In this document: piece after piece, positions 3,059-64,000 of the stretch
Position numbering within the stretch: the first letter of the stretch is position 1
How the letters are laid out: the number at the start of each line of letters is the position of its first letter
Source of the DNA: Escherichia phage saus132
DNA: 64,000 nt
Sequence record: NC_047884.1
Reading direction: 5' to 3' (one strand)
Position numbers and translations under genes: made by a program
Notes under the pieces: generated by a model
Told to the model about the DNA's origin: nothing
What the model saw: the letters and a program-made list of their open reading frames with translations, nothing else
Database searches by the model: none

Positions 3059-3902
3059 ACTAATCGTTGTTAGTGGTGCAGGTTTGAGTGTAGATAGTGG
3101 TGTTCGTGCTTTCCGTACTGATACTGCTAGTGGGAAATCCTTGTGGGATGAGTACGATCTAGAGGAAGTATGTAGCTTGCCTAACTTTGAAGCTGGCTTC
3201 CGTCGCTTCTGTGGTGAAGATGATCCTAACTACTTCAGTGCTCGTTTCCCTGGCATTGATGAAGATGGTAACGATCTGTATCTCAAGACTCATGAGTTCT
3301 ACAACATGCGTCGTCAGGAATTACAGACTGTTGAGCCTAACATTGCCCATCTGCGAATTGCAGAATGGTTCCAGCGTTATGGTGCGGATAGCGTGAAGAA
3401 CTTCACTACTAACGTTGATGACCTTCTGGAGCGCGCTGGTATCCCTCGTGATGAAATCATCCATGCTCACGGATACTTGAAAGAGGTGATCTATCGTCGG
3501 GGTCGCAATCAAATCATCGAAGATGTTGGATACACTGCAATTGTTCCTGAAGATTACGAATGGGTAAAACCAAACGTGGTGTTCTTTGGTGAAACAGCTC
3601 CGTGGTACATGGGTCAGATCAACCTGTTTGATACGCTTACTAGCAATGATATGGTTATTGTGGTGGGTTGTAGCAACCAAGTTATCAACTTCAACTGGGA
3701 ATTATTCCCTGCTGTATGTCGTGGAACTAAGATGATGGTTGTTAACCCTCAAGTTCGTTATGATGAACAGCTTGAGTATGAGAAACGTGGTGTTACTGTA
3801 TGGCGGGCTGGAGCTGCCGAAGTTTTTGGTAACAAGAATTTCATTGGTCAAGTAGAAGCCTTTATGGAAGGAACTATTTATGCACCGCAAGAGCATGTGT
3901 GA
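3051..3902 (+). CDS. Sir2-family (sirtuin-like) NAD-dependent enzyme lacking the zinc-ribbon cysteines
   Basis: Motifs VVSGAGLSVDSGVRAFR (GAGxS), TTNVD, catalytic HG, VVFFGE, VVGCS; no CxxC pairs between HG and FGE. Confidence 0.7.
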   Translation: MRRLIVVSGAGLSVDSGVRAFRTDTASGKSLWDEYDLEEVCSLPNFEAGFRRFCGEDDPNYFSARFPGIDEDGNDLYLKTHEFYNMRRQELQTVEPNIAHLRIAEWFQRYGADSVKNFTTNVDDLLERAGIPRDEIIHAHGYLKEVIYRRGRNQIIEDVGYTAIVPEDYEWVKPNVVFFGETAPWYMGQINLFDTLTSNDMVIVVGCSNQVINFNWELFPAVCRGTKMMVVNPQVRYDEQLEYEKRGVTVWRAGAAEVFGNKNFIGQVEAFMEGTIYAPQEHV

Positions 3903-5678: not shown

Positions 5679-6173
5679 TTTATATTGAATTGAGAGACAT
5701 TAGTAAAAATTGATTTTGCTAATTTTTCTTGTTTACAATCCGCAATACGGAACAGTTAGGCTGCCCCATTAAGGGTTGTTTTAACTATTACTAGTGTTTA
5801 TACTGCATTAGTTAATTATCAATTAAGTGATCTGCGTACCCTGAATTCGGAAAGGTAAATCCAAACCGTGCATATTTAGCTCGTTATATAGGCAGAGCTT
5901 TATATGGGGGTGCGAACGAAAAGAGCAGCGAATGGTGACACGTCCAGTAGCCACCTACCAATAGGATAGTGAGGGCAATCAGAATCGGCTTAGCGGCCAA
6001 TGACCTAGGTTCTGATCTGGATAAGAGTTAAGAGAGCGCAGCACTGAGGTATGATAACTTATTCATACTGCTTGATGATGATTAATGTTTGTGTAAATGG
6101 TAGTAATAGTTGTTCTATTCTTTTGAATAGTCCTAAAGAAAGATATCCGAATAACCAACATAGGAGTATTGTT

Positions 6174-9248: not shown

Positions 9249-9953
9249 ATGGCTGGTTCTCGTAGAAAGAAACTTATCCATGAAATCCCTGATGAAACCT
9301 TTAAAAAGGTTATTGAACATCTAGAGAATGGTGGTACTAAGAAAGCAGCATGTGAAATGCTCGGCGTTTCTTCTAACCCAACTATGGAACGAATGATCGA
9401 GGAATGGAGAGATCGTCAGGTTCAAGTTGCGGAAATGAAAAAGAAGAAGCGCGGAACACTGATTGAAGGTGTTGAGCTTGCAAACGTAATTGAACAGTAT
9501 CTTTCTGGTGATTCTTTTGAAGAAATCGCTGATCGTAATTATCGTTCTGTAGCGATGATTAAATCTGTTCTAGAACGTTACGGTGCTCTGCTTCGTTTAA
9601 ATGATACTGTTGATCCATTGAATCCTCCATTGATTCCTGATGATGCAATGGCAGAGGAATTTGAAGTTGGTGAACTTGTTTGGGTTCCTGGCTATCAGTG
9701 TATTGGTGAAATCAAGAAAGCAATGACTAACCCAGTTGGTTGCTATCGTGTTTGGTTGTTATCAGAAGGTAAACAACAGAACGTTCACTATATGCACTAC
9801 GAATTAGCTTCTGTTAAACATCTGGAAAAGCTGGGAGTTGATGTTAAAGCTCTTGGCTTTAAATGGAGCCGTGAAGAAGTTATCACGTTGGTTAATGAAG
9901 CTGTTAAAGCTGCACTGAAACTCGATAAAGAGAAAGGAAAACGCCGTGAGTAA
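9249..9953 (+). CDS. Putative DNA-binding protein (N-terminal HTH)
   Basis: GGTKKAACEMLGVSSNPTMERMIEEW helix-turn-helix-like segment; directly downstream of PN25-like promoter. Confidence 0.55.
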   Translation: MAGSRRKKLIHEIPDETFKKVIEHLENGGTKKAACEMLGVSSNPTMERMIEEWRDRQVQVAEMKKKKRGTLIEGVELANVIEQYLSGDSFEEIADRNYRSVAMIKSVLERYGALLRLNDTVDPLNPPLIPDDAMAEEFEVGELVWVPGYQCIGEIKKAMTNPVGCYRVWLLSEGKQQNVHYMHYELASVKHLEKLGVDVKALGFKWSREEVITLVNEAVKAALKLDKEKGKRRE

Positions 9954-52184: not shown

Positions 52185-53966
52185 TTAGGTTAGGCGTTGA
52201 ACTGTTACACGTAGTCTTGGCAAGAAAACAGCTGCCGCTTCTGCAGCGTGAATGATAACACCCAACTCAACGTTGCCATTACCAAGGTTTTTAATAGTAT
52301 AAATATATCCGTTCCTACGGAAAGCAAACTCATCAGGCCTACTAGCCCAAGTTTGTGTATAACTATAGGAAGTTGTACTGTGATAAGGTACTAGATATCC
52401 AGGTGGCAGAGTAAGAATCTGGTGGAATACACCATCACCAGCAGTATAACTTTGTTGCCGTCTACCTTGTACCTGCCAAGCACTACCTCCGTAAGTACGC
52501 ACAGGCATTCCAGCAGTATTAAGATTACCCATAATAACTTCAGTAGTTAATATAACAGTAGAGTGAGCATTCGGTAATCCCAACCAAACTGTGGCCAAAG
52601 GTGTGTAGAAGTCACCAGCACCAGGGTAGGATGGAGTTATATCGTCCCCTACATAAGTACTTGCAACGTTGCCTGGGAATAACCTGAGGGGTACAGTACT
52701 AGGACTCCAGACAGGTCCATGTTCATTACCAATGGAGTTGGTATTAGTATCTACATACCATTGTTTACCTACACCAAATTTATATAAGCTAATTTGAGAA
52801 GCTGCACCCCCATAGTTAACAGGAGACCACAATCCGCCATTACTAGAGCCGATAAATTCACATCGTGCAGTATTATCACCAAAAACTCCGGTATACGCAG
52901 CGTTATTACCAACATACTCCATATCAGGGCGATAGCCTAAGTTTCCGAAAGCATTCTGGTTAATAAATTTATAGCCTGTATTTGGTAGGCTAACACCTTT
53001 AATAGTAAAGTTAGATGGAGATATTAAGATATCTGAACCGGTAAATGGATTACCAGAAACTCCCATACTACCATTAGAATAGCGCAGATTTAGTACATAC
53101 CAAATAACCTTAGTTGGCGTAACGTTGTACCAGTCCTGTACATATACCTTTCTAGTGGCTTGCGCAGCCATATTAGTTGTAGAACCCCTACAAACGTATA
53201 CTTTAGTAGGAAAGGAGGGGGATTGGTAGTTAATGTTTACGTTATCTGGTAGTACGCCTTTTTTACCTGCGAAGCCACGAATATTAGAACTACAAACATA
53301 AAACCAATCATGGCCTCTACCAGCAGAACCAATAGGCGCCTGCCAGTTAGGATCCCAATAATCAGCGTTACCACCATCTAAAGGAACAGTAGAGACACCA
53401 GTTGGAAAACCCATAAGACTCCAGGCTCTGGCAATGGCTTCACCAGCAGGAACACCACCAGGTCTAAAGATCTGGAAACCAGAGGACTGTAGTAAACTGC
53501 CTCCAGAACCTTGCCTAGCAATAGATTCCTCATGACCAAGACCACCATTATAGATATAAGTACCATGAGCTAAACTATCCCCGATCGCAAAAGCAGATGT
53601 TACAGATAATTCAGCACCAGCACGTGGTGGGTCTTCAAAAAATGATAAGAACTGGCCAACCTGAGATTGAGTACCATTGAGGAATCCTCTATGAGTACCG
53701 TTTATCTCAATAGCAGTTAATATAACTCTACCTGGATCATTGGATTTAATATTTATAATATCCCAAGGCATCTGAGTAACAAAGTATCCATTACCTGCAT
53801 TACCTAGGGCTGCTTCATAAGTCCCATCAACCAGGACGAAAGGCATATCGGAGTGGAAAATACTATTAGTATTTGGAGAATAGTGCTCACCAGTATCACC
53901 ACCATTAGCAGCATTTAGAGATAATACAGTTTTACCATCACTAAATTTTCCTGCGAAAAAACTCAT
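52185..53966 (-). CDS. Receptor-binding protein (T5 pb5/oad-like)
   Basis: N-terminus MSFFAGKF...[20 protein letters not shown] resembles remembered pb5 start; Gly/Asn/Tyr-rich; divergent lipoprotein gene alongside. Confidence 0.7.
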
Positions 53967-53991
53967 ACAATCTCCTTCTTTAAAAATGTAT

Positions 53992-54020
53992 TTGCTTAGA
54001 TCCCTCTATTTTGCTATAAT
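53992..54020 (+). promoter_or_regulatory. Early-type promoter driving the lipoprotein gene
   Basis: TTGCTT, 17 bp spacer, TGCTATAAT, then ATATTTATAAATTAAACAGAGGAAC. Confidence 0.55.
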
Positions 54021-54049
54021 ATATTTATAAATTAAACAGAGGAACGATT

Positions 54050-54316
54050 ATGAAAAAGTTACTAGCTATCGTAGTTGCAGCAGTAGTGTTGACTGGTTGT
54101 GTACCAGCTCCCGAGCCATTCTGTAAGGCATACGTGAAGTCTTATGGACATGTTGGTGAAGAACACTACGCTTTAGATATTCGAGAAGCACGTACTGTGG
54201 GCTACCGATTCCCTAAAACTCAGTTACGCACTAAGTTTGGGTGGTGGGATTTGTCACAGTTTGATCTCAAATATGGTGATTGCAAATTTAAACTAGAACA
54301 ATCTGGTCACTTGTAA
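54050..54316 (+). CDS. llp: Lipoprotein, putative receptor-blocking superinfection-exclusion protein (Llp-like)
   Basis: Signal peptide with lipobox MKKLLAIVVAAVVLTGC; small size; divergent from the receptor-binding protein gene. Confidence 0.7.
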   Translation: MKKLLAIVVAAVVLTGCVPAPEPFCKAYVKSYGHVGEEHYALDIREARTVGYRFPKTQLRTKFGWWDLSQFDLKYGDCKFKLEQSGHL

Positions 54317-54389
54317 TTAGTATAAAGTAAAAAGATCTCGAAGTAAACAAAAATTTTTATTTCTGGGATGAGGTACAGGTAGCAAACAC

Positions 54390-54600
54390 AATGCAAGATG
54401 AAGAAAAGTCCTTTCAGGAACCTGTTAACTTTGAAATAAATCCCAGGAATAAAAAGCAATACATGATGCAATTGATGAAATCATTCAAGACGTCATAGAA
54501 GATACAGTAGAAGACGTGATGGAACATCCTTCTTACTAGAAGAATCCGGCTTCGACGAAGTAATGGATCTAATCGGGACAGTCGTAATGGTTCGTGCAAT
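54390..54600 (+). pseudogene. Possible decayed gene remnant
   Basis: Three consecutive short protein-like frames (MQDEEKSFQEPVNFEINP..., ...AIHDAIDEIIQDVIEDTVEDVMEHPSY, ...EESGFDEVMDLIGTVVMVRAIARVFQ) separated by frame changes. Confidence 0.3.
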
Positions 54601-54779
54601 TGCTAGGGTATTCCAAATACCAAGACTATAGGAGAAGCAAAGAGATGTCAGAAGACAACAGAAGAAAGAACAGACGTGGGGAAGTGTACGAAAGTTGGAT
54701 AAATAGTTTCGGATTCGGAACTGTATTATTCTTTATCTTTGTACTCTTTTGGTTAGCGGCTATGGCGGGGTGGTTATAA
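54594..54779 (+). CDS. Small membrane protein
   Basis: C-terminal hydrophobic helix FGFGTVLFFIFVLFWLAAMAGWL. Confidence 0.4.
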   Translation: MQLLGYSKYQDYRRSKEMSEDNRRKNRRGEVYESWINSFGFGTVLFFIFVLFWLAAMAGWL

Positions 54780-54882
54780 TGGAAGTAATAATTATTGCTT
54801 TACTAGTTGTGGTAATTATAGAGCAGTGCATCTTAGATAACCACTTAGCTCGTATCGAACGTAAGCTGCGGGGAGACAAGTA

Positions 54883-55128
54883 ATGTTTAGTTTTGTAGCT
54901 ATCTTCATTATCGGGGTACTTGCGGGAATCTTCGGAACACTCGGGGCTATTAACAAACATCGTGAATATATTGCGGGAGTATCGCGGGAGCTTTCGGAAA
55001 GGGAGCGGAAGTTTGCGGAGAAACGTGCGGAGTTTGAGCGAGAATGGTCTGATGGATCTCGGGCGTCGCGGAGGAGGTTTCGTATGTCAGAATCAGGAGA
55101 CAAGCCAGTAGACCGGTGTTCTTCCTAA
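54883..55128 (+). CDS. Small membrane-anchored protein
   Basis: N-terminal helix FSFVAIFIIGVLAGIFGTLGAI then charged tail. Confidence 0.45.
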   Translation: MFSFVAIFIIGVLAGIFGTLGAINKHREYIAGVSRELSERERKFAEKRAEFEREWSDGSRASRRRFRMSESGDKPVDRCSS

Positions 55129-55243
55129 GTTAGCGCTAATTACCAATTCTCGAAATTTCATAAGATTACACATGCGGGTGGGCCCAGAGGTTCCCCAGAT
55201 GAGAATGAGTCTCATTACCGCCCCGGTACTTAGCAAGCTAATA

Positions 55244-55286
55244 GTCACACCATGTTATCATTACACAGTGTGACTATTTTATTTTT
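55244..55286 (+). terminator. Rho-independent terminator
   Basis: GTCACAC-17 nt loop-GTGTGAC followed by TATTTTATTTTT. Confidence 0.55.
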
Positions 55287-55291
55287 AATTG

Positions 55292-56026
55292 TTAGGCAAC
55301 TTTTAATTTATCAATGAATTGTTGCGGAGTGGTACTATATTCCGCGCGTTCTTCCTCGGTCATACCTTCCCAACACATTTTTAAACGTTCGGCTAGGAAT
55401 TGATAATCGTTATCATCATCAAGCGATTCATCAATAAAGGTTTCACCGATCAATGTTACGCCGATTGATAGGATATCATTAACGGCTTGAGCGTCCAGCG
55501 TTTTAAATCCAGCACTTGCCGCCGCCGATAATACACCTTTATGATCATCAATCATTGTAAAATCAGCGTTAGGATATAGCTGTTTAAACAGTTCAAAGTA
55601 ATAAGATTTATATACAGCGTCTTTGCTGTGATATATTTCGCTAACCTTATTTGCATCAAAGTATTTATGTAATGTATCGCGGGAAAATACGCGAATATTA
55701 CTATTTCCGCGCCCTCGCAAGCCTTGTTTACGCAAATAAAAGTAATCGCTTTTAGACATTAAGCGAGCGGTACAAATAATATTTAAAGTATTTGCATCAT
55801 TCATGCACTGGCGCATATATTCAACCAACGGCAATAAAGAATCCTGCATAATTAAATCATGTTTACAGGCTTCGCGGAAATACTTATTTAAATCTAAATT
55901 CCCGTTATCATCAAAGCAAGGCGCTACACGGTGGAAAGAATTAATGATAGTTCCGTCTAAGTCCCAAATCATAACGCGGGAAATATGCGGGAAAGTGCGG
56001 GTAATATTCATATTGACTTGATTCAT
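55292..56026 (-). CDS. dmp: Deoxynucleoside-5'-monophosphatase (HAD family, T5 Dmp-like)
   Basis: 244 aa; N-terminal MIWDLDGTIIN (DxDGT). Confidence 0.75.
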   Translation of the reverse strand: MNQVNMNITRTFPHISRVMIWDLDGTIINSFHRVAPCFDDNGNLDLNKYFREACKHDLIMQDSLLPLVEYMRQCMNDANTLNIICTARLMSKSDYFYLRKQGLRGRGNSNIRVFSRDTLHKYFDANKVSEIYHSKDAVYKSYYFELFKQLYPNADFTMIDDHKGVLSAAASAGFKTLDAQAVNDILSIGVTLIGETFIDESLDDDNDYQFLAERLKMCWEGMTEEERAEYSTTPQQFIDKLKVA

Positions 56027-56113
56027 TTGTTACATTCTCCATTTAAGGGATTTAGGTTAATTCAATCTTGCCAGCTAATTATATTAGATTAGCTGGCAAT
56101 GTTCAATTAACTA

Positions 56114-56506
56114 TTAATTAGTGAGGCCATACGCTAGCGCGTCACCGATAAAGGAAAGATCTTCACCATGTACGCTAGAACGGATACCCGCGCAAGTGTA
56201 AACCATCGCGCTAGCTTCTGGATTGCAGACCGGACACGGCTTAACAACTGCAAACGCTAGACCGGATTTAAGCGCATCAATAATAATTGTTTGCACTGTC
56301 AAAGTATCAGCGTAAACTCCTTTTGCTTTTGTATGGCTTGCCACTTTGCCGGTATCATAAGCAAAGGTAGTAACCTGCAAAGCGTCGTTATAATTCAGCA
56401 AATCGAAATTAACTTGCCCCGCCTCGACGTGATAACGTTCGCCATTAGAATAAACTAGAACGATGGAAGAAGTAGCACGATCAAAAGGAATGTTTTGGTT
56501 TTTCAT
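56114..56506 (-). CDS. Hypothetical pre-early-region protein
   Basis: ORF with GC-richer codon usage typical of this block. Confidence 0.55.
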   Translation of the reverse strand: MKNQNIPFDRATSSIVLVYSNGERYHVEAGQVNFDLLNYNDALQVTTFAYDTGKVASHTKAKGVYADTLTVQTIIIDALKSGLAFAVVKPCPVCNPEASAMVYTCAGIRSSVHGEDLSFIGDALAYGLTN

Positions 56507-56538
56507 GTTTATGACTCCAGATTATTTAATTACGGGAT

Positions 56539-56817
56539 TTATTGAAAAAATACATTTAAAGATAAATCAGTTTTACGAAAATATGTTTCGTCGCCGTCTT
56601 TCCTTTCTTGATTAAGGTAATCGCCTGTCATTACCTGAATAGAATCTTTTCCGAAAAAGATCATATTTTCGCCAATATTACTATCCCATACGGCATACAT
56701 TCCCGCGTACATTCCACGGGTAACTAAATAAACGCAACTATCAAAAGACATTTCAGACCATGCAATATCTTCTAAACAATTGCTATCAGGGATAGATATA
56801 TTAATTTTACTAGCCAT
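56539..56817 (-). CDS. Hypothetical pre-early-region protein
   Basis: ORF between A1-like and dmp-like genes. Confidence 0.5.
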   Translation of the reverse strand: MASKINISIPDSNCLEDIAWSEMSFDSCVYLVTRGMYAGMYAVWDSNIGENMIFFGKDSIQVMTGDYLNQERKDGDETYFRKTDLSLNVFFQ

Positions 56818-56869
56818 TTAATAAACCTTTTATTAATGGCGGTATATTTCAACCGCCGATTAAATTTAA

Positions 56870-58534
56870 TTATGCAAAGAATTTTCCATTCTTAAAGTCA
56901 ATCAAAGTACGCTGCCCGTTTGCGTATGTAATTAAATGGGTTTGCGTCCAGCTACTAGCGCCAACGTTGTAACCCATATCGAGACTACCAGCAACGCCAG
57001 CGGTATAAACGCCGCCATAAATACTAGCCGTGTGAGTGTGGCCAGTATTGAGGCGTCCCAACTTTTTGAACTGTTTTGGATTGCCCCGACTGCCATTAAT
57101 GCCGTTGTGACCATGAACACCGCATTCAATTCCTGCAATCTTGAAAGATTGGTCAGTGGTTAGGAAAATGGCGTTAAATTCGCAACCTGCAACGTTTCTA
57201 AGCGCGTAATCCAATACGTTAAAGGTATCATCTTGTTTTGCAATAGCTGCATAAATCGCGGCGTTTAGGCTGTGATACAGTTCGGCGTTTGCGGGGTCGT
57301 CTTTAATGTTAGCGTTGCGATCATCAAGCCAACGGGATAACGCCAAATCATGATTGGATTCCACGATGATTGTTTGAGAAAAATCGCGCTCCATTGACTC
57401 CAACACGCGACCGGTATCAATGAGATCGTCAATAACTTTGTCACGTCCGGCGGCGTACTGTTTAGCTAGGAATACACCAGAGGCACGATTATGATGATTG
57501 CGGGATGTAAAATCGTGTACGTCATGGATAAACTGATATTTCGGTTTAAGAATATCAAGCAAGCTATTTTCGCCCACCCATGATGCAACGGCGCAATCAT
57601 CATCTAATTTTTCGGCGTGAATATCGCCATATTGCAAGCCTAAAACATGATCAGATGTTTTGAAACATCCGGTGGGCACAGCGCAAACGTTCAAATCGTA
57701 GAACATCCCGCTTTCGTCCATAGTTTCAAGCTGGCGAACAAAAAATTCTCCGTCGTCGTCAAATTCTACCAGTAAAGCACCGAAATTATGCAGCGCCTCG
57801 GCCTTTTGTCCTGCCTTTTGCTGAATATAGTTTTTAAGTGTAGCCGTTCCGGTGGAGTACATACGGCGCACTACTTCACCTTTTAACGCTGGCACACTTT
57901 CAGCGGTAATTTTTGCGTGACCAATTGCCAGACCTTCGATGTTTAAAGCCGTTGCAGTTTCTGCGAATCCAGAAAGCGGATAATCTGCCGTTGGTAATAC
58001 ATTAATTTCAGCCATGAAAGCAAAACGGCGATTATTCAAAAACACGTTTTTCTCACAAATATATTTATCAAATGCGGGATCATATTTGATTTTTTCGCCG
58101 CCTTCCCCGTTCTGAAATCCGTTTTTGTTGTAAATGAATTTGCTAACAAGTAATTCAGCGCCGTAATAACTAGCGTACTGCTCAAGCGCTTTCAAAAAGT
58201 TTTTATGCGGGAAAGTATTGTTTTGAATCGACGTTAGAATAAAACGGCGACCGGATTTAACTTCCCACTGTTCAACGGTGCTAGAAACAATCCCCGCCGC
58301 TTCTGGGCGATCATCGTTTTTAATGGCTTTTACTGCCTTCGCTGCCTTCGGTTTCGCTGGCTTATTTGCTTCCAACCAGTCACAAATTGCCGTTGAATGT
58401 TTCGGCGTATCATAAACAGCTTTTGAAATATCGTCGCAAACTTCCAATTTAGTAGCGCGTAAACGCTTACCGTAGAAGTTAAAATCTGCGGCCATTTTCA
58501 AAATTTGAGCTTGTTTTTCTGCGGAAATATTCAT
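56870..58534 (-). CDS. A1: A1-like pre-early protein (calcineurin-type metallophosphatase motifs)
   Basis: 554 aa; motifs GDIHAEK, GHNGINGSRGNP, GHTHTASIY; size matches remembered T5 A1. Confidence 0.75.
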   Translation of the reverse strand: MNISAEKQAQILKMAADFNFYGKRLRATKLEVCDDISKAVYDTPKHSTAICDWLEANKPAKPKAAKAVKAIKNDDRPEAAGIVSSTVEQWEVKSGRRFILTSIQNNTFPHKNFLKALEQYASYYGAELLVSKFIYNKNGFQNGEGGEKIKYDPAFDKYICEKNVFLNNRRFAFMAEINVLPTADYPLSGFAETATALNIEGLAIGHAKITAESVPALKGEVVRRMYSTGTATLKNYIQQKAGQKAEALHNFGALLVEFDDDGEFFVRQLETMDESGMFYDLNVCAVPTGCFKTSDHVLGLQYGDIHAEKLDDDCAVASWVGENSLLDILKPKYQFIHDVHDFTSRNHHNRASGVFLAKQYAAGRDKVIDDLIDTGRVLESMERDFSQTIIVESNHDLALSRWLDDRNANIKDDPANAELYHSLNAAIYAAIAKQDDTFNVLDYALRNVAGCEFNAIFLTTDQSFKIAGIECGVHGHNGINGSRGNPKQFKKLGRLNTGHTHTASIYGGVYTAGVAGSLDMGYNVGASSWTQTHLITYANGQRTLIDFKNGKFFA

Positions 58535-58642
58535 AACTAAATCAACTCCTATAAAGGGATAAATATTAATACTGGCAATATTGCCAAATATAACGCCTTA
58601 CCTGAAGTGAGGACAATTTAAAAGGCGTTATAATTTGCAATA

Positions 58643-58888
58643 TTATTCTAGAATTGGCATAAGACTAGAACTAAAACCGCAACTAATAGCCAGCGTTAAA
58701 AATATAATCGCCAGATATTTTTGTTTATTAGCTTGACGTTTAAACATATCAGCGGCATAAGCTGAATTAATGCCGATAATAGAAATTATATATTTGCCGT
58801 AATTAAATATAAATATAGCGGCAACTATAAATAAACCTAAAATAAACGCTTCACTAGGGAAGAAGATCATTTTAATAACTCCGGTCAA
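58643..58888 (-). CDS. Small integral membrane protein
   Basis: Two hydrophobic helices (FILGLFIVAAIFIFNY and YLAIIFLTLAISCGF). Confidence 0.45.
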   Translation of the reverse strand: MTGVIKMIFFPSEAFILGLFIVAAIFIFNYGKYIISIIGINSAYAADMFKRQANKQKYLAIIFLTLAISCGFSSSLMPILE

Positions 58889-58928
58889 AGGGAAATTATA
58901 GCGGGGAATAATCCCCGCTAATTAAAAT

Positions 58929-59345
58929 TTATTCACCTGCGGCCTGTTTTACTTCCTCCGCTACGCCTAACAATTGCGCTACGGCTTCCAGCGTTTCCAG
59001 TTTTGCACTTTCCAGACTTGCCAGATCATCAGCGTCTTTGATAACGCCAGCATCAATGGCATGTTTAGCCATAACGCGCACATAGTGAGCTTTACGGACA
59101 CTAGACCCGCCGCCAACTTTACGCGGTTTATCACTTTTCTGGTACGCTTTTGCGCTTGTCAGTTTAGAACGTACAGAAACAGGGCTTGCAGCGCCAACGG
59201 CGGCGGCAATTTCTTTCAGGCCGTCACTGTTAGCAAATTCAATTCCGCTTTTAGCGACCATTTCAGAATACATAGAAACAGCCTTTTCGGTGTTTTCTTC
59301 GTTCCAAGAGAATTTTGCGGTTTTTTCGGTTTTAACGTTAGACAT
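58929..59345 (-). CDS. Putative A2-like pre-early DNA-binding protein
   Basis: 138 aa ORF upstream of A1-like gene in transcription order; assignment by position and size only. Confidence 0.4.
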   Translation of the reverse strand: MSNVKTEKTAKFSWNEENTEKAVSMYSEMVAKSGIEFANSDGLKEIAAAVGAASPVSVRSKLTSAKAYQKSDKPRKVGGGSSVRKAHYVRVMAKHAIDAGVIKDADDLASLESAKLETLEAVAQLLGVAEEVKQAAGE

Positions 59346-59631
59346 AATTTAATACTCCATTCAATTATTAATTAAGGGATTATGATTAACTAAATGTTAA
59401 TCGCTATATATTCTATTAGCTAGAATATATAACGGAAACATTTTATTTTTATTTCCAGTTTCAAGCGGTTTATTAATTCCCGAATATATTTATATTCTCA
59501 CCTTATCCGGCTTGCCAGAGAATTAATAAGGCAACATTGTATTTATACGCTGTTTATTATTCCGTTCACGCTAGGAATATTTCGAGTTATCTTTATTGCC
59601 TAACTAAGCATGATATGTAAGGCGCATTAAT

Positions 59632-59883
59632 TTATGCGATAGCTTGCCATTTATCATCTTTCTGAATGATTTTTACAACGTCGCCAGATTTAACACGGAC
59701 GTTATAAATAGGCTTGCCGTGGTTACTGCGTTCCGTTTCCGCATAGACCGCTTCAATCTTATCAAAGGGATCAAGCGCCGCACCTTTAATACGTTCGGCT
59801 TTTCCGGTTAATTCATCCGTTTTAGTTACAAAAGGAATGAATACAGATTGACCTACTTTCGGCGCGGTAATAACGTTTTGCAT
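59632..59883 (-). CDS. Hypothetical protein
   Basis: ORF in pre-early block. Confidence 0.5.
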   Translation of the reverse strand: MQNVITAPKVGQSVFIPFVTKTDELTGKAERIKGAALDPFDKIEAVYAETERSNHGKPIYNVRVKSGDVVKIIQKDDKWQAIA

Positions 59884-60047
59884 TTTTAATACTCCGGTTT
59901 ATTGGGGATTATTCCACAATAGCGCCTCGATACTTTGAAACGCTATTAGATTATAATCCGCTAGGAGTTAGCCTAAACATTACCGTTATCCAAATTGTTA
60001 AAGAGCAGTTACTACGGGGAACATCTTAAAACCTATCGGCTAGCGTG

Positions 60048-60257
60048 TCAAGCGTTTTTTAAACTTTTTTCGATTTGATGTGAGTTATATAAATCAATCA
60101 TTATATTACGCCACACCATTTCCAGACCTTGCTGCTTACCTTTCTTGTATTGCTTGAATCTGTATTTTACAGATCTTTGCGCTACTGTCAACAAATTTTT
60201 TGTTCTGCTATCAAGTGACTTGATAGGCTTGCCAGTGATCAAAAGCGTTTGTTTCAT
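60048..60257 (-). CDS. Hypothetical basic protein
   Basis: Lys/Arg-rich ORF; an upstream 52-codon ORF (60260-60418) overlaps its start by ATGA. Confidence 0.45.
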   Translation of the reverse strand: MKQTLLITGKPIKSLDSRTKNLLTVAQRSVKYRFKQYKKGKQQGLEMVWRNIMIDLYNSHQIEKSLKNA

Positions 60258-60749
60258 TTGAGATCCTCCAAAGCATATAAACCATCCCCATCATTGCAGA
60301 TTATTACCGCTTCCGAATGATTAGCATAGTATTCATTTGCAGTCTTTACCCATTGTTCGATTTTTTCGATAGTGTCGTGGGTAGCTGGATGATCGTTAAA
60401 TATTATTGTCATATCGTCGATTCCTTATAATGTATAAGTTTACCGCCGATAGGCTTTAAGATGTTCCCTAGTTTTTAAAGAGCATGGCGGTAAACTTCCC
60501 CGCCGTGTAGTTCGTCATTGCCGCCCTACGTGATAAATATTAGGGGAATACCGAAAAGGGCGCAACCATATTTTTGTAAAGAAACGTAAAGACAAACGCC
60601 ACCGCACCACGTCCAGCGGCGCACTAAATTTAATGAAACGGGCGCGCGAATAACACCAAAACAACCATTTTAGCAAGTAATTTTTTCATTTATATCTGCT
60701 CTAGGGTACTTGACAAAATCTAAAATCCTCGTGGTGAGGTTTTCTCGGT

Positions 60750-60830
60750 GTGCCCCTTATGGTTGCCTATCTTTTCCTTTGAGGCGCTTAGAATGCGTTA
60801 CAGAGCGTTTTAGACCCTGTTAATAACTTA
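60750..60830 (+). repeat. Direct repeat copy 1 (core TTAGAATGCGTTACAGAGCGTTTTAGA)
   Basis: 27-bp core at 60786-60812 identical to 63363-63389, degenerate similarity on both flanks. Confidence 0.85.
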
Positions 60831-60859
60831 TACAAAAAGCAAAAATGAAATTTAATGAG

Positions 60860-61201
60860 TTATCCACTTGATTTTTCAAAAAAGTATTTTCTGCTATTAT
60901 TTTTCATTGACAAATAAGTTTAGACGTGCATTGATTGGTTAGCAGACTAACAATCGCTAGGATGATAATCACGCTGGTGGATTGTAACAGCTGAAACAGT
61001 TAGCAGACTATTAATACTCTAAAAACCTATTAGCCAACTAACTATTTCATATTATATAATATACTTATAAATTAAAGAGAAATAATAACTATAAGAAACT
61101 ATCGGCTAAGTGAGAACCACTATCATTTAGGTTATTCACAAAGTTATCCACAGCACAAAATAACTTGACGCAATAGGCGACGTTTTGGCGACTTATCCAC
61201 A
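60860..61201. promoter_or_regulatory. Cluster of DnaA-box-like 9-mers
   Basis: TTATCCACT at 60860; TTATCCACA at 61144 and 61193; weaker GGTGGATTG at 60976. Confidence 0.6.
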
Positions 61202-61247
61202 GACTTATATACAGGTTATCCTACTGTATAAATATACAGGGTAGAAT
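61192..61247. repeat. Left arm of long inverted repeat (contains DnaA box and palindrome CTGTATAAATATACAG)
   Basis: About 90 percent identical to reverse complement of 63418-63472. Confidence 0.85.
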
Positions 61248-61519
61248 GGTAGCAGTAACAACCGCAATCAAATTTAAGCGGCCTAGAACACGCTATACGG
61301 CGTTTTCTCACTGCTACCCTTATTATAATAAAGCCTTGTGTACGCTTACAGAGAACTAGAAATAGAAAACGCGCGGCAATGGAAGCGGCAATGTTGGAAA
61401 TGGTACAAAGTTTCAATATTGCTGAAATGATCGATGAAATGGTAAAAGGTATTGACATTTCAACCTTTACCCAAAATGCTGAAAGCGAGTAATAATTAGT
61501 CTAATGTAAAGTTTTGTAA

Positions 61520-61546
61520 AGGTCGCCCTAATCGGCGGCCTTTTTT
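61520..61546 (+). terminator. Terminator-like hairpin
   Basis: GGTCGCC-ctaatc-GGCGGCC followed by TTTTTT. Confidence 0.45.
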
Positions 61547-61548
61547 GT

Positions 61549-61554
61549 TATAAT
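61549..61554 (+). promoter_or_regulatory. Extended -10 promoter element
   Basis: TGtTATAAT followed by RBS TAGGAGG and ATG 61612. Confidence 0.4.
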
Positions 61555-61611
61555 GCCTTTACACCGAAACGGTGGATTGAAAATTTTCCCCTGATTTCTA
61601 GGAGGCGTTAA

Positions 61612-61839
61612 ATGGTACATTCATCATCTTCTGCAATTTTTAACGGTATGGAATGGGTATCCGTTCCCGCTATTGTCAGCGTTATGGTTTCTGAGTTCGG
61701 CATAGGTAAAACTTATGTTACCATTCAGGGGCTTTACGACAATGACAAGATTGACCAGCAAACCGCCGGATTTTTGCTGGATGAATTGAAAGCTAACCAT
61801 TGCACTAAAAAGCAAGCGGCAAAAATTGTTTTAATGTAA
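61612..61839 (+). CDS. Hypothetical small protein
   Basis: RBS context ATTTCTAGGAGG. Confidence 0.55.
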   Translation: MVHSSSSAIFNGMEWVSVPAIVSVMVSEFGIGKTYVTIQGLYDNDKIDQQTAGFLLDELKANHCTKKQAAKIVLM

Positions 61840-61885
61840 TTATTAAAGGGGATATATTATCCCCTAATTTCTAGGAGCTAATAAA

Positions 61886-62035
61886 ATGGTTATTTTTCGA
61901 TCTATTCTGGCTAGTATCTTGGGCGCTATTTTATCGTTGTTTGCAATAGCTTTCGGTGTTCATGCCGTTATTATCGGAGCAGGTATCGCGGGGTTTTCTT
62001 ACTTGTTAGGCTGTATGACTGGTAAAGGGGAATAA
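61886..62035 (+). CDS. Small membrane peptide (49 aa, below ORF-track size cutoff)
   Basis: RBS context ATTTCTAGGAG; hydrophobic ILASILGAILSLFAIAFGVHAVIIGAGIAGF. Confidence 0.4.
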   Translation: MVIFRSILASILGAILSLFAIAFGVHAVIIGAGIAGFSYLLGCMTGKGE

Positions 62036-62037
62036 AA

Positions 62038-62250
62038 ATGTTAAAGAATGTTTCCCTTGCCCGTTCCAAAGGTTTTAAGCTGGTGGATGTTAACACGTTC
62101 GAGCGTCCAGATTGTAAAATTGAATATGTAGCACGCAACAAAAACGCTTTCCGTGTCACTGAAAAGAAATTTGACAAGCGCGGCAATTTGGTAGCCGAAA
62201 CGGTTAAACACTTTGCCACTTTTTACGCTGCATTTCGTGGGGTATTATGA
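62038..62250 (+). CDS. Hypothetical small protein
   Basis: ORF in tightly packed operon. Confidence 0.5.
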   Translation: MLKNVSLARSKGFKLVDVNTFERPDCKIEYVARNKNAFRVTEKKFDKRGNLVAETVKHFATFYAAFRGVL

Positions 62251-62387
62251 AAACTTTATTTTCTATTTTGCTCGGTGCTGCTGGTGGCTTTATTGCTACC
62301 TGCTTTAAAAGTGATCCTGCACTGTTAGGCGTTTATTCGATTTGTTTTGGCTATTTGCTAGGGAGGCTGGCAGATGGTTATTTATGA
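62247..62387 (+). CDS. Small membrane peptide (46 aa, below ORF-track size cutoff)
   Basis: MKTLFSILLGAAGGFIATCF...; start overlaps upstream stop. Confidence 0.35.
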   Translation: MKTLFSILLGAAGGFIATCFKSDPALLGVYSICFGYLLGRLADGYL

Positions 62388-62718
62388 GGGCAATCGCTTT
62401 GTTACTAATTGCCGTCCGGCATTATTAGCAAACTATTTAAACCAGCTTTCACCAGTTTATAAAGGCGTAATTAATATCTATGAGGGCAAAGCACATTATA
62501 AGATTAATGCCATTGTTGCCCGTGAACTAGCGTTTCAATTTTTAACTTTTGGATCTTGTGACGTTCAGGTTATGGGGGAAGCGTTAATAGCAGAAAATGA
62601 AAATGAATTTATCGACATTTTCCGCAAAGTATGTACAGAGCGCCTGATTATGAAAGGCGCGTATATTCAATCAACCGCTGAAAGTATAGAAACAGCGTTT
62701 CGAAAGGTGGCGCAATGA
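62374..62718 (+). CDS. Hypothetical protein
   Basis: ORF in operon. Confidence 0.55.
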   Translation: MVIYEGNRFVTNCRPALLANYLNQLSPVYKGVINIYEGKAHYKINAIVARELAFQFLTFGSCDVQVMGEALIAENENEFIDIFRKVCTERLIMKGAYIQSTAESIETAFRKVAQ

Positions 62719-62912
62719 CTAAAGATGAAGCACTAGAAAAAATGAAACAAGGTTTCAAAGTTCGTCAAGAATACTTCACTAGTGAGGAATTTTTGTACAT
62801 GAAAAATGGCGTGATCATGTCAGAAGATGGATATACTTTTAATGACTGGTTTTTCAAGATTACCCCTGCTACACGTTGGAAGCTAGACGGTTGGAGCGTC
62901 TACCGTGAATAG
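62715..62912 (+). CDS. Hypothetical small protein
   Basis: ORF overlapping upstream stop (ATGA). Confidence 0.5.
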   Translation: MTKDEALEKMKQGFKVRQEYFTSEEFLYMKNGVIMSEDGYTFNDWFFKITPATRWKLDGWSVYRE

Positions 62913-63035
62913 CTGGTGGCGAAAAACACAAAGCCATAAATCTAATAATACCGCTGGGAAACATTCCCAGCGTTTACGATTTAGTAGCGGGCTTGTAATG
63001 GTAATAATAATCATTCTCATTCTAGGAGCGATGGC

Positions 63036-63275
63036 ATGGCTGTAAGAATTTTACGATATGTGGAACGTAAAGAAACCGATATTATGCAACATCATTTAAC
63101 TGATGCGCAATACGCGCAATTTTTAGAAATGCAGAAAAGCGGAGCTGATACGGCAACGCTAGGAGCGTGGATCAACTCAGTTTCAACGTGTACGCATTTT
63201 GATTCATACGGGTATACGCCAGCCGAAACCGTCCAGATCTTTGATGACTACGAGAAAGAATACATAGCAGACTAA
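63036..63275 (+). CDS. Hypothetical small protein
   Basis: RBS TCTAGGAGCGATGGC-ATG; followed by terminator. Confidence 0.55.
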   Translation: MAVRILRYVERKETDIMQHHLTDAQYAQFLEMQKSGADTATLGAWINSVSTCTHFDSYGYTPAETVQIFDDYEKEYIAD

Positions 63276-63281
63276 TAATAA

Positions 63282-63309
63282 CGGGGCGCAACTATCGGCC
63301 CCGCTTTTT
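63282..63309 (+). terminator. Rho-independent terminator
   Basis: CGGGGC-gcaactatcg-GCCCCG followed by CTTTTT. Confidence 0.6.
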
Positions 63310-63324
63310 CTGGCCTTCCTCAAA

Positions 63325-63405
63325 TTTCCCCTTATTAAAATACCTCCTCCAAAAATAAACGCGTTAGAATGCGTTACAGAGCGTTTTAGAGCTATATTAG
63401 AGTTA
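63325..63405 (+). repeat. Direct repeat copy 2 (core TTAGAATGCGTTACAGAGCGTTTTAGA)
   Basis: 27-bp core at 63363-63389 identical to 60786-60812. Confidence 0.85.
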
Positions 63406-63417
63406 TTCACTACGCAG

Positions 63418-63472
63418 GAATACTGTATAAATATACAGTAGAATAACCTGTTGATAAGTCTGTGGATAACGC
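63418..63472. repeat. Right arm of long inverted repeat (contains DnaA box TGTGGATAA and palindrome)
   Basis: Reverse complement matches 61192-61247 at about 90 percent; further GGTGGATAA at 63522. Confidence 0.85.
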
Positions 63473-63562
63473 CTCAAAATCGCTAGGATTTTGTCAAGTC
63501 AAATCGTGCTGTTAATAAACCGGTGGATAACTTAAATAACAGTGTTTCTCACTTCGCTTTGT

Positions 63563-63706
63563 AAATGCGAGTCACTCTCATTATCATTCGCGTTTCCCTT
63601 CCTAAATGCAAATCATTCTCATTCGTATTCCGGTAGTCAAATGATAACTATTCTCATTCGCATTCAACTTCTCAAATGCGAATCAATCTCATTATCATTT
63701 GCATTT
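63563..63706 (+). repeat. Iteron array 1: four tandem ~36-bp units each containing an inverted pair AAATGCGAAT...ATTCGCATTT
   Basis: Units start at 63563, 63604, 63639, 63674. Confidence 0.8.
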
Positions 63707-63743
63707 CGGCAGGCAGGGCATTTTCTATTTGCCCTGCGCTTTT

Positions 63744-63966
63744 GTGCAAATCCGACATTTGCCCCCACGGATTACGTGCCAGCGTGCATGTGCGAATCCG
63801 ACAATTTTTGGTAGTGTGCAAATCCGATGGCAAATATTTTTTATATGTGCGAATCCGACAATGAATTTTCCTAAAAACTCCAGCAATCCGCAACTGCGAT
63901 GCAATCCAGCTGGGTTTACTAGAGTATGTGCAAATTCGACAAGTGTTAAGGTGTGCGAATCCGACA
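63744..63966 (+). repeat. Iteron array 2: six same-orientation copies of GTGCRAATYCGAYR (array may continue beyond window)
   Basis: Copies at 63744, 63790, 63816, 63847, 63929, 63953; shares core TGCGAATC with array 1; perfect hairpin GCAGGGC/GCCCTGC at 63713-63737 between arrays. Confidence 0.8.
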
Positions 63967-64000
63967 AGATTTTTGTGACTTCGATGAGAGGGTGTGTGAT

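Follow-up and report, generated by a model that had tools for sequence, protein, structure and literature searches.

Introduction

Can a row of very small open reading frames (ORFs), some of them too short to have entered a program-made ORF list, be recognized as a genuine operon, and if so, to which phage system does it belong? This question is raised by positions 61540–63310 of a 64,000-nt stretch of Escherichia phage saus132 (NC_047884.1), the whole of which is referred to below as the window. A first-pass annotation, made from the letters of the sequence, described here a compact operon of seven small proteins with a repeated ribosome-binding site (RBS) context, including two hydrophobic peptides below the cutoff of the ORF track, and bounded by a promoter, a terminator and long inverted repeats. 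The analysis presented here indicates that the region is very likely the copy, located in the right terminal repeat of a T5-like Epseptimavirus, of the rightward pre-early (first-step-transfer) transcription unit. Operons of this type are already known and are ordinary for the T5-like phage family, which the first-pass annotation missed. All seven ORFs that it named are present on the plus strand at the positions given, and the compactness, common orientation, stop/start overlaps and Shine-Dalgarno (SD)-like sites of the cluster are confirmed, but the unit comprises eight genes, not seven.

Results

Identity and location of the operon

The 3 kb around the operon are 100% identical to the corresponding part of chee130_1 (MF431736), poul149, chee158, cott162 and saus176N, five records labelled "Bacteriophage T5-like" and belonging to the genus Epseptimavirus, with the match lying inside their annotated terminal repeat; identity to Seafire, Eps7 and other Salmonella and Escherichia phages is 93–95%. 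One of the five, chee130_1, is among the 25 phages compared by Davison. Window positions 53500–57000 map to 111486–114986 of the 121,986-bp genome of MF431736, and window position 64000 is therefore the right end of the genome, so that the operon sits in the right terminal repeat (8717 bp in MF431736, corresponding to window positions 55284–64000). The genes dmp, A1 and A2 are located upstream of the operon on the minus strand (55292–59345), and the operon is oriented away from this unit.

Orthologues of T5.012,.013,.014 and.015 were found by tblastn in the T5 order and are collinear with it. In the T5 record NC_005859 the order is a promoter (6411–6489), T5.011, a terminator (7534–7559), T5.012–T5.017 and then the injection stop signal with the terminator at 9275–9296. 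The long inverted repeats (135 nt, 75% complementary) do exist, but instead of being boundary elements of the operon they are the known T5 injection-stop repeats IRC-spacer-IRD and IRD'-spacer-IRC' with their paired DnaA boxes, described by Wang and Davison, and the operon lies between them. The collinear T5 homologues, the aligned inverted repeats and the statement in the BF23 paper that the pre-early genes form two inversely oriented transcription units together identify the operon as the known rightward pre-early unit. In phage Bas33 the pre-early genes are transcribed and proteomics detected 10 products. Expression by the host RNA polymerase before second-step transfer, followed by A1-dependent shut-off, is expected of this gene class and would apply here as well; a conserved extended -10 match is present.

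A plasmid origin of the region was considered and rejected, no match having been found in PLSDB and the DnaA boxes and iteron-like repeats being part of the T5 injection-stop region, not of a replicon. An Rfam and tRNA scan of positions 60400–64000 returned two sub-threshold Rfam matches, both on the terminator hairpin, and zero tRNA genes; PADLOC gave no match for any of the eight proteins. The features of the region are collected in Table 1.

Table 1. Genes, predicted signals and flanking elements of the rightward pre-early unit, in window positions
Feature	Position	Strand	Description
Left inverted-repeat arm	61105–61239		T5 IRC-spacer-IRD; DnaA boxes; aligns with T5 6019–6237 and, inverted, with 9411–9542
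Gene-011 remnant	61379–61492	+	37 C-terminal codons of T5.011/DUF7566; Pfam positions 300–336 of 336, E=1e-14
Upstream terminator	61518–61549	+	10-bp stem, 6-nt loop, T-tract; -16 kcal/mol, z=-3.9; ends the gene-011 unit
Candidate extended -10, TGTTATAAT	61546–61554	+	Overlaps the T-tract of the upstream terminator; predicted start near 61561
RBS context copy 1, ATTTCTAGGAG	61594–61604	+	SD of ORF1
ORF1	61612–61839	+	75 aa; T5.012 homologue, 72% identity; phrog_5145, E=2e-47
ORF1-ORF2 hairpin	61847–61865	+	-11.4 kcal/mol; possible attenuator or mRNA-stabilising stem
RBS context copy 2, ATTTCTAGGAG	61867–61877	+	SD of ORF2
ORF2	61886–62035	+	49 aa, two-helix hydrophobic; T5.013 homologue, 63% identity; phrog_5607, E=2e-31
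ORF3	62038–62250	+	70 aa, basic, pI 10.1; T5.014 homologue, 93% identity; phrog_4227
ORF4	62247–62387	+	46 aa, hydrophobic; phrog_19184, E=3e-30; not in T5
ORF5	62374–62718	+	114 aa; T5.015 orthologue, 89% identity; phrog_4379
ORF6	62715–62912	+	65 aa; Tad2-like (DUF2829) fold, weak but convergent evidence; not in T5
ORFx	62905–63045	+	46 aa, GTG start; eighth gene
Hairpin inside ORFx	62952–62972	+	-15 kcal/mol, z=-5.5; followed by UUUACGAUUU; annotated as terminator in Seafire
TCTAGGAG	63021–63028	+	SD context of ORF7, within ORFx
ORF7	63036–63275	+	79 aa, acidic, net charge -7; phrog_12351, E=6e-58
Operon terminator	63282–63310	+	Hairpin and T-tract, -12.7 kcal/mol; T5 equivalent 9275–9296; annotated in T5 and Seafire
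Right inverted-repeat arm	63423–63557		T5 IRD'-spacer-IRC', start of the injection-stop region; DnaA boxes

Coding evidence for the small genes

Selection on the ORFs was assessed in 39 loci (36 from IMG/VR and three from GenBank) using codon alignments and pooled Nei-Gojobori dN/dS. In their own frames the values were 0.16 for ORF1, 0.23 for ORF2, 0.07 for ORF3, 0.29 for ORF4, 0.06 for ORF5, 0.19 for ORF6 and 0.14 for ORF7, while a shift of these alignments to the +1 and +2 frames gave 0.64 to 4.6 (1.3–1.5 for ORF1, 0.64 and 0.98 for ORF4, and 0.64–2.3 for ORF2 and ORF4 taken together). PHROG families are matched end to end by all seven ORFs of the first-pass annotation. These matches, together with purifying selection confined to the frame of each ORF, mark the small ORFs as real genes; the conservation that the first-pass annotation had proposed as a check on them is thus found.

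The two peptides that had fallen below the ORF-track cutoff are indeed hydrophobic, with grand averages of hydropathy of 1.59 (ORF2) and 1.03 (ORF4). ORF2 covers positions 1–49 of 49 in phrog_5607, aligns with T5.013 over its full length and contains two hydrophobic helices. The ORF3 family is confined to T5-like phages. ORF7, found in 89 phage records, fills the slot that most relatives use for a T5.017-like acidic protein. Sequence searches of the PDB returned no relatives for ORF1, ORF3, ORF5 or ORF7.

In MF431736, positions 6000–8100 (window 61283–63383) are annotated with ORF1, ORF3, ORF4 and ORF6 only; ORF2, the 114-aa ORF5, ORFx and ORF7 carry no annotation there, so that four of the eight genes are annotated.

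An eighth gene between ORF6 and ORF7

What looks like a gap of 123 nt separating ORF6 from ORF7 is occupied by a further gene overlooked in the first-pass annotation, here named ORFx, whose product (MNSWWRKTQSHKSNNTAGKHSQRLRFSSGLVMVIIIILILGAMAWL) has a basic N-terminus and, judging by hydropathy, a hydrophobic transmembrane helix at its C-terminus. ORFx overlaps both neighbours, its GTG start with the stop of ORF6 (GTGAATAG) and its stop with the start of ORF7; a GGAG is found 9 nt upstream. In relatives that do not carry ORF6 (loci L005, L031 and L038) ORFx starts with ATG directly at the ORF5 stop, and in L031 its stop overlaps another downstream gene. The in-frame omega is 0.28, compared with 0.91 and 2.5 out of frame; among eight distinct sequences every substitution in codons 2–15 is synonymous, including a change of Ser between AGC and TCC. 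ORFx is an annotated coding sequence in OQ359889, and its N-terminus was found in 224 phage records.

The gene contains a strong hairpin (Table 1). In one relative the loop of this hairpin is flipped and two codons are altered (KH to NV), and since the stem is kept in spite of the codon changes, the structure itself seems to be maintained. Loop-flipped forms were observed among the relatives at two places, namely this hairpin (GGGAAACATTCCC or GGGAATGTTTCCC) and the centre of the LexA-like palindrome described below; they suggest hairpin-loop inversion by template switching or cruciform processing in a repeat-rich region.

Loss of gene 011 and the signals of the transcription unit

Compared with Seafire, approximately 990 bp are absent upstream of the operon, in the interval 61250–61492, the junction lying at window positions ~61371–61380 and at Seafire (L002) positions 3381/4370. 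This deletion has removed the gene-011 promoter (TTGCCC-N18-TATCAT), its RBS, its start and all but the last 37 codons, together the 5' nine-tenths of the gene, the T5 version of which is toxic. The remnant begins with ATG, is annotated as a gene in MF431736 and has a PHROG of its own (phrog_23458); no SD and no promoter were seen in front of it.

The remnant is followed by a terminator, the homologous position of which is annotated as a terminator in T5 (7534–7559), and the two sides of its stem covary among relatives. A GC-rich stem-loop followed by a T-tract, as in an intrinsic terminator, is found both here and at the end of the operon (61518–61549 and 63282–63310). Fused to the upstream terminator is the extended -10 sequence TGTTATAAT. 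It has no good -35, and a simple promoter scan of the window did not list it. Of 29 distinct upstream contexts, 27, including that of T5, have a TG(T/C)TATAAT sequence 63–67 nt ahead of the first ORF. According to Annor et al., the promoter upstream of 011 is the only rightward promoter to have been characterised experimentally, and with this promoter deleted in the phage analysed here the extended -10 becomes the best candidate; we infer from the sequence that it may serve as the promoter of the operon. The bounds proposed earlier are thus occupied at all three places by a promoter-like sequence, a terminator and inverted repeats, though the promoter is a consensus match only.

Between ORF1 and ORF2 lies another hairpin, present in all relatives and in most of them lacking a U-tract. 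RNAalifold on 12 sequences gave six pairs, three of which show compensatory double changes, and none that is broken.

The repeated RBS context

The motifs described before the starts at 61612, 61886 and 63036 are all present. ATTTCTAGGAG occurs exactly twice in the 64-kb window, each copy ending 7–8 nt before an ATG, and TCTAGGAG four times, of which three are in this operon (61597, 61870 and 63021). Dinucleotide shuffles equalled the raw motif counts in 12 of 100 trials, and the count by itself is therefore not significant. The repeat is nonetheless real: the motifs cluster, they are placed identically with respect to start codons, and the two ATTTCTAGGAG copies extend to a 22-nt repeat with 91% identity (D9). 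However, TTTCTAGGAG before ORF1 is confined to the sub-lineage of the window, most relatives, T5 included, having AAAATTTGGAGGCTTAAA (also written TTTGGAGG or TTTGGAGGCTTAAA) before ORF1 and CTAACTAGG(G)GAG before ORF2. Being confined to this lineage, the repeat that the first-pass annotation highlighted is not a conserved regulatory signature but a local feature around a strong SD.

In some relatives ORF1 is missing; L038 and L034/35 have an ORF1-type RBS with its spacer joined directly to the ORF2 coding sequence. Loss through recombination between the RBS repeats was considered and rejected, the joint being located at the start codons (ATGGT), outside the repeat.

The probable Ung-dependent nickase

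Mahata et al. (2021, PNAS) reported that T5.015 binds Ung and nicks the apurinic/apyrimidinic (AP) sites that Ung creates. ORF5 is 89% identical to T5.015 over residues 1–114 and occupies the same position in the operon, which makes it an orthologue of this protein and, by homology, a probable Ung-dependent AP-site nickase. A PDB sequence search revealed no solved relative or recognisable nuclease fold for ORF5.

Two neighbouring proteins compete for this function in public databases. In NC_005859, T5.015 is a 114-aa protein and T5.014 a 70-aa protein. Mahata et al. tested T5.002,.003,.005,.007–.009 and.011–.017, a list from which exactly dmp (.001), A1 (.004), A2 (.006) and hegG (.010) are omitted if the NC_005859 numbering is used; Annor et al. 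use NC_005859.1, with 013 as the protein with two transmembrane domains and 015 as the nickase; and the UniRef name of the 114-aa cluster and T5.015 is 'DNA-(apurinic or apyrimidinic site) endonuclease'. As all three fit the 114-aa protein, the nickase is assigned to ORF5 with fairly high confidence, on the basis of locus-tag logic and the UniProt name only, the main texts of the papers giving neither size nor accession. The nickase label that RefSeq and PHROG place on the ORF3 family is probably an error. In RefSeq the name seems to have slipped by one gene, and from there it has propagated into many T5-like genomes, the sites in conflict being the ORF3 and ORF5 intervals in the window and 8086–8298 and 8300–8644 in T5 (L003).

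ORF6 and the Tad2 family

Against Pfam PF11195, ORF6 scored 18.8 bits (E=0.0025), below the gathering score of 25 bits, and 16 of the 21 members of its family matched this Pfam entry, with a best E-value of 5e-4. The AlphaFold2 (AF2) model of ORF6 (pLDDT 93.6) contains helix alpha1 and an antiparallel beta-sheet with short helices, as expected of the Tad2 fold. Tad2 of phage SPO1 was the top PDB match by sequence and provided the only PDB fold matches above noise (probabilities 0.87 and 0.77, TMq 0.55–0.59), and DUF2829/Tad2-like proteins in BFVD matched with E-values of 1e-4 to 1e-2 and TM values of 0.6–0.74. Evidence that ORF6 has a Tad2-like/DUF2829 fold is therefore weak but convergent. 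Relatives of ORF6 were found in 424 phage records, most of them not T5-like, and T5 itself has no ORF6; T5 served as a sponge-free chassis in Tad2 knock-ins.

Membrane peptides and gene turnover

ORF4, found by tblastn in 160 phage records, occupies a polymorphic slot. Between T5.014 and T5.015 the relatives carry nothing (as in T5), a member of the ORF4 family (41–47 aa), an unrelated 40–41-aa peptide beginning MIAQIKTAF, a 35-aa peptide beginning MERAIVKML, or a combination of two. Downstream of T5.015 come ORF6, ORFx, hydrophobic peptides of 52–53 aa, T5.016 or other genes, and in the last slot either a T5.017-like acidic protein or ORF7. Gene content turns over by insertion and deletion of whole genes, with the joints at start/stop overlaps.

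The related loci L002–L039 were seen to contain at least eight unrelated families of hydrophobic peptides of 31–60 aa in interchangeable slots, namely ORF2, ORF4, ORFx and those beginning MIAQIKTAF, MERAIVKML, MKKFLIAGMF, MAVYIALLGY and MSITTAFYIM. Paralogy of ORF2 and ORF4 is not claimed: there is a cross-hit and a shared G[YS]YL[LI]G motif, but the hhalign probability is 8.7%.

As regards ORF2, the T5 protein Gp013 has two predicted transmembrane domains and, when expressed ectopically, caused toxicity resembling lysis (Annor et al., 2026 preprint), whereas Mahata et al. saw no toxicity for 013.

Further observations on the flanking repeats

Two near-consensus LexA (SOS) sites were observed, one in the left arm (61222–61241, TACTGTATAAATATACAGGG, 17/20 to TACTGTATATATATACAGTA) and one at the right arm (63421–63440, TACTGTATAAATATACAGTA, 19/20 to TACTGTATATATATACAGTA). 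CTGT-N8-ACAG occurs at only four sites in the window, the other two of which score 11–12/20. The 19/20 site to the right of the operon is found in nearly all of the 39 T5-like loci, including T5, and its asymmetric centre is flipped between phages (ATAAATAT or ATATTTAT). The iss preprint of Davison is silent on LexA, and no link between LexA and the T5 repeat region was found in the literature consulted for the repeats. Judging from these motifs, the injection stop signal could be a place where LexA of the host serves as a roadblock or a sensor.

Beyond the right arm, positions 63540–64000 contain dense direct repeats, including three 51-nt units at 63546–63707 and five copies of TGTGCRAATCCGACA at 63743–63972. 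Their counterparts in the injection-stop region of T5 are the DRE/DRD repeats, and the end of the window is the exact genome terminus. An exact 27-nt direct repeat (TTAGAATGCGTTACAGAGCGTTTTAGA, D7) is present at 60788–60814 and 63364–63390, 2576 nt apart and outside each inverted-repeat arm, and is probably part of the conserved layout of repeats (Repeat Regions 1/2 and 3).

Discussion

A working model of the unit

The left-end copy of the operon would enter the cell first, as part of the DNA used to subvert the host, and host sigma-70 RNA polymerase would then start transcription at TGTTATAAT, pass the ORF1-ORF2 hairpin and the hairpin in the translated ORFx, and halt at the terminator at 63282–63310. 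Stop/start overlaps (ATGA, GTGAATAG and ATGGCTGTAA) may couple translation along the messenger. The products would comprise a membrane-perturbing peptide with two transmembrane helices similar to T5 Gp013 (ORF2), two further small membrane peptides (ORF4 and ORFx), a nickase that would damage dUMP-containing host DNA (ORF5), a small Tad2-like protein that could sequester a nucleotide signal of host immunity (ORF6), and three small proteins predicted to be soluble (ORF1, ORF3 and the acidic ORF7), and together they may act as accessory factors of host takeover and counter-defence.

Several points weigh against parts of this model. The promoter, the readthrough and the translational coupling are predicted from sequence alone, and TGTTATAAT has no recognisable -35 and is not found by a simple scan. 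Two strong internal hairpins could terminate transcription, in which case the dosage or the units of ORF1, ORF2–ORF6 and ORF7 may differ. The similarity of ORF6 to Tad2 is under the Pfam threshold and its PDB fold match is modest (TM 0.55–0.59). The copy present in the window is that of the right terminal repeat, which enters last and may never be expressed as 'pre-early'. Finally, 13 of the 17 pre-early genes of T5, including hegG–017, are dispensable, and the T5 ΔLΔR mutant, in which hegG to 017 are deleted on top of left-hand deletions, is viable, being the sole mutant with smaller plaques; by analogy, any function of the unit would be auxiliary, and since hegG to 017 are dispensable in T5 we regard the unit as accessory.

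Alternative explanations

If the two or three small hydrophobic ORFs were untranslated chance ORFs in AT-rich intergenic or overlapping sequence, their lengths of only 46–49 aa, the omission of ORF2 and ORFx from the identical record MF431736 (which does annotate ORF4) and the absence of an ORFx annotation in Seafire, where its hairpin is labelled a terminator, would all be understandable, and T-rich sequence can yield hydrophobic ORFs. Each of them, however, has a PHROG family or a coding-sequence annotation elsewhere and is found in 160–224 or more phage records; in-frame omega values (0.23, 0.29 and 0.28) contrast with 0.64–2.5 out of frame, start codons and stop/start overlaps persist across differing gene contexts, ORFx shows the double synonymous Ser change, and the ORF2 homologue T5 Gp013 has an expression phenotype, all of which leaves the idea of chance ORFs hardly credible. 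Somewhat greater, though still low, is the probability that ORF3 (70 aa) and not ORF5 (114 aa) is the Ung-dependent nickase. T5.014 is labelled 'endonuclease nicking abasic sites generated by host uracil glycosylase Ung' in NC_005859, as are phrog_4227 and many RefSeq T5-like genomes, the 70-aa protein is named 'ORF015' in another T5 record (Q5DMS9_BPT5), and ORF3 is lysine-rich, the published non-toxic mutant having had three Lys substitutions. Set against this, the list of Mahata et al. and the numbering of Annor et al. lead to a 114-aa T5.015, the UniRef endonuclease name sits on the 114-aa cluster, and the AF2 model of ORF3 (pLDDT 84.6) has no nuclease-like fold match, its best PDB fold match reaching only E=0.43 with a probability of 0.21. 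We therefore retain ORF5 as the probable nickase and the hydrophobic ORFs as genes.

The question of whether there is one transcription unit is less settled, and a division into two or three, with the hairpins at 61847–61865 and 62952–62972 as terminators or attenuators, is a possibility that deserves attention even though we consider it the less likely arrangement. It would predict an excess of ORF1, lower levels of ORF2–ORF6, and ORF7 expressed by readthrough or from a start of its own. Both hairpins are stable (-11.4 and -15 kcal/mol), the second is followed by a U-rich tract and is annotated as a terminator in Seafire, and the first keeps its stem by compensatory changes in three of six pairs. 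In one relative the stem of the second survives a loop flip by which two codons are altered, so that this structure itself appears to be under selection. Yet the promoter scan is empty in 62973–63035 and before ORF2, the first hairpin has no U-tract in most relatives, and the second lies inside an ORF with coding-type conservation that overlaps its neighbours on both sides, where coupled translation would be expected to suppress termination. Translation-coupled attenuation is an established mechanism. Much less probable is a specific regulatory element in the 11–22-nt context CCCCTGATTTCTAGGAG, such as a translational-repressor operator or a processing site, co-regulating ORF1, ORF2 and ORF7; that the exact 11-mer occurs at these two sites only in 64 kb, that three of the four TCTAGGAG sites of the window are here at equal distance to start codons, and that the 22-nt repeat is 91% identical would agree with it, but the context is found in one sub-lineage only, with T5 and most relatives differing before ORF1 and ORF2, the raw counts are matched by 12% of shuffles, the common core is merely AGGAG, and the remaining five ORFs have other SD contexts. 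A single rightward unit, read from the extended -10 to the terminal terminator, remains our preferred description.

Significance

The discovery value of this locus is small, as the operon and the repeats that flank it, along with most of the genes, have been described for T5 and its relatives and every ORF belongs to an existing phage protein family; its practical value lies in annotation and in leads. What the analysis adds is modest: an eighth gene that is under-annotated, the Tad2-like ORF6, polymorphic slots for membrane peptides, the loss of gene 011 and its promoter, and the nickase naming conflict. With 011 and the mapped promoter lost in this lineage, the terminator-fused extended -10 is a promoter candidate that can be tested.

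A Tad2-like protein and interchangeable membrane peptides in the DNA that enters first are candidates for early counter-defence. Judging from the predicted fold, ORF6 may be a minimal 65-aa Tad2-type sponge directed against a Thoeris, CBASS or Pycsar signal before the remaining genome enters. The diversity of the peptide slots may result from diversifying selection that acts on small membrane effectors, directed for instance against abortive-infection systems working at the membrane, or alternatively the slot peptides may control ion or nucleoside efflux during the injection pause. We put forward only tentatively, and with doubt, the proposal that embraces these readings of ORF6 and of the peptide slots, according to which the rightward pre-early unit would be a fast-turnover counter-defence cassette within the first 8% of the genome. 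This lead may bear on the differing sensitivity of Epseptimaviruses and Tequintaviruses to host defences.

Comparison with known systems

Among the closest known systems is the T5.012–T5.017 unit of T5 (NC_005859, 7624–9157), which has the same place in the terminal repeat, flanked by the gene-011 terminator on one side and the injection-stop repeats on the other, the same orientation, the same junction of terminator and TGTTATAAT and the same terminal terminator. It differs in having no peptide gene between T5.014 and T5.015, in carrying T5.016 and T5.017 in place of ORF6, ORFx and ORF7, and in an intact gene 011 with its promoter, both of which are lost in the phage analysed here. Another is the unit of the Salmonella phage Seafire (Epseptimavirus, NC_048110), its gp012–gp017 being syntenic and 91% identical in DNA across the unit, with ORF1, ORF2, ORF3, ORF5, ORF6 and ORF7 identical or near-identical and with the RBSs and both hairpins annotated; in contrast with our phage it has an intact gp011 and, at the ORF4 slot, an unrelated 41-aa hydrophobic peptide (MIAQIKTAF...), and ORFx and ORF7 are present in its DNA but unannotated.

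For the individual proteins, ORF2 and T5 Gp013 align end to end, share both helices and the C-terminal motif FSYLLGCM..KGE, and differ by a loop insertion of 10–11 residues in Gp013. ORF5 resembles the T5.015 of Mahata et al. in sequence (89% identity) and in operon place, the public naming being split between UniProt, which names the 114-aa protein, and RefSeq and PHROG, which name its 70-aa neighbour. Tad2 of Bacillus phage SPO1 (DUF2829, PF11195; PDB 8SME/8SMF/8SMG) is a sponge for gcADPR Thoeris signals; as a class, such sponges are homotetramers in which a pocket between protomers takes up gcADPR or other signals, and they inhibit Thoeris, CBASS or Pycsar defence. Its elements come in the same order as in the ORF6 model, where a helix at the N-terminus precedes an antiparallel sheet accompanied by short helices, whereas ORF6 is shorter (65 as against 89 aa), has no long loops and is only about 20% identical. 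The inverted repeats, the arms of which align with T5 6019–6237 and 9411–9542 and carry TTATCCACA-type boxes, show no material difference from those of T5.

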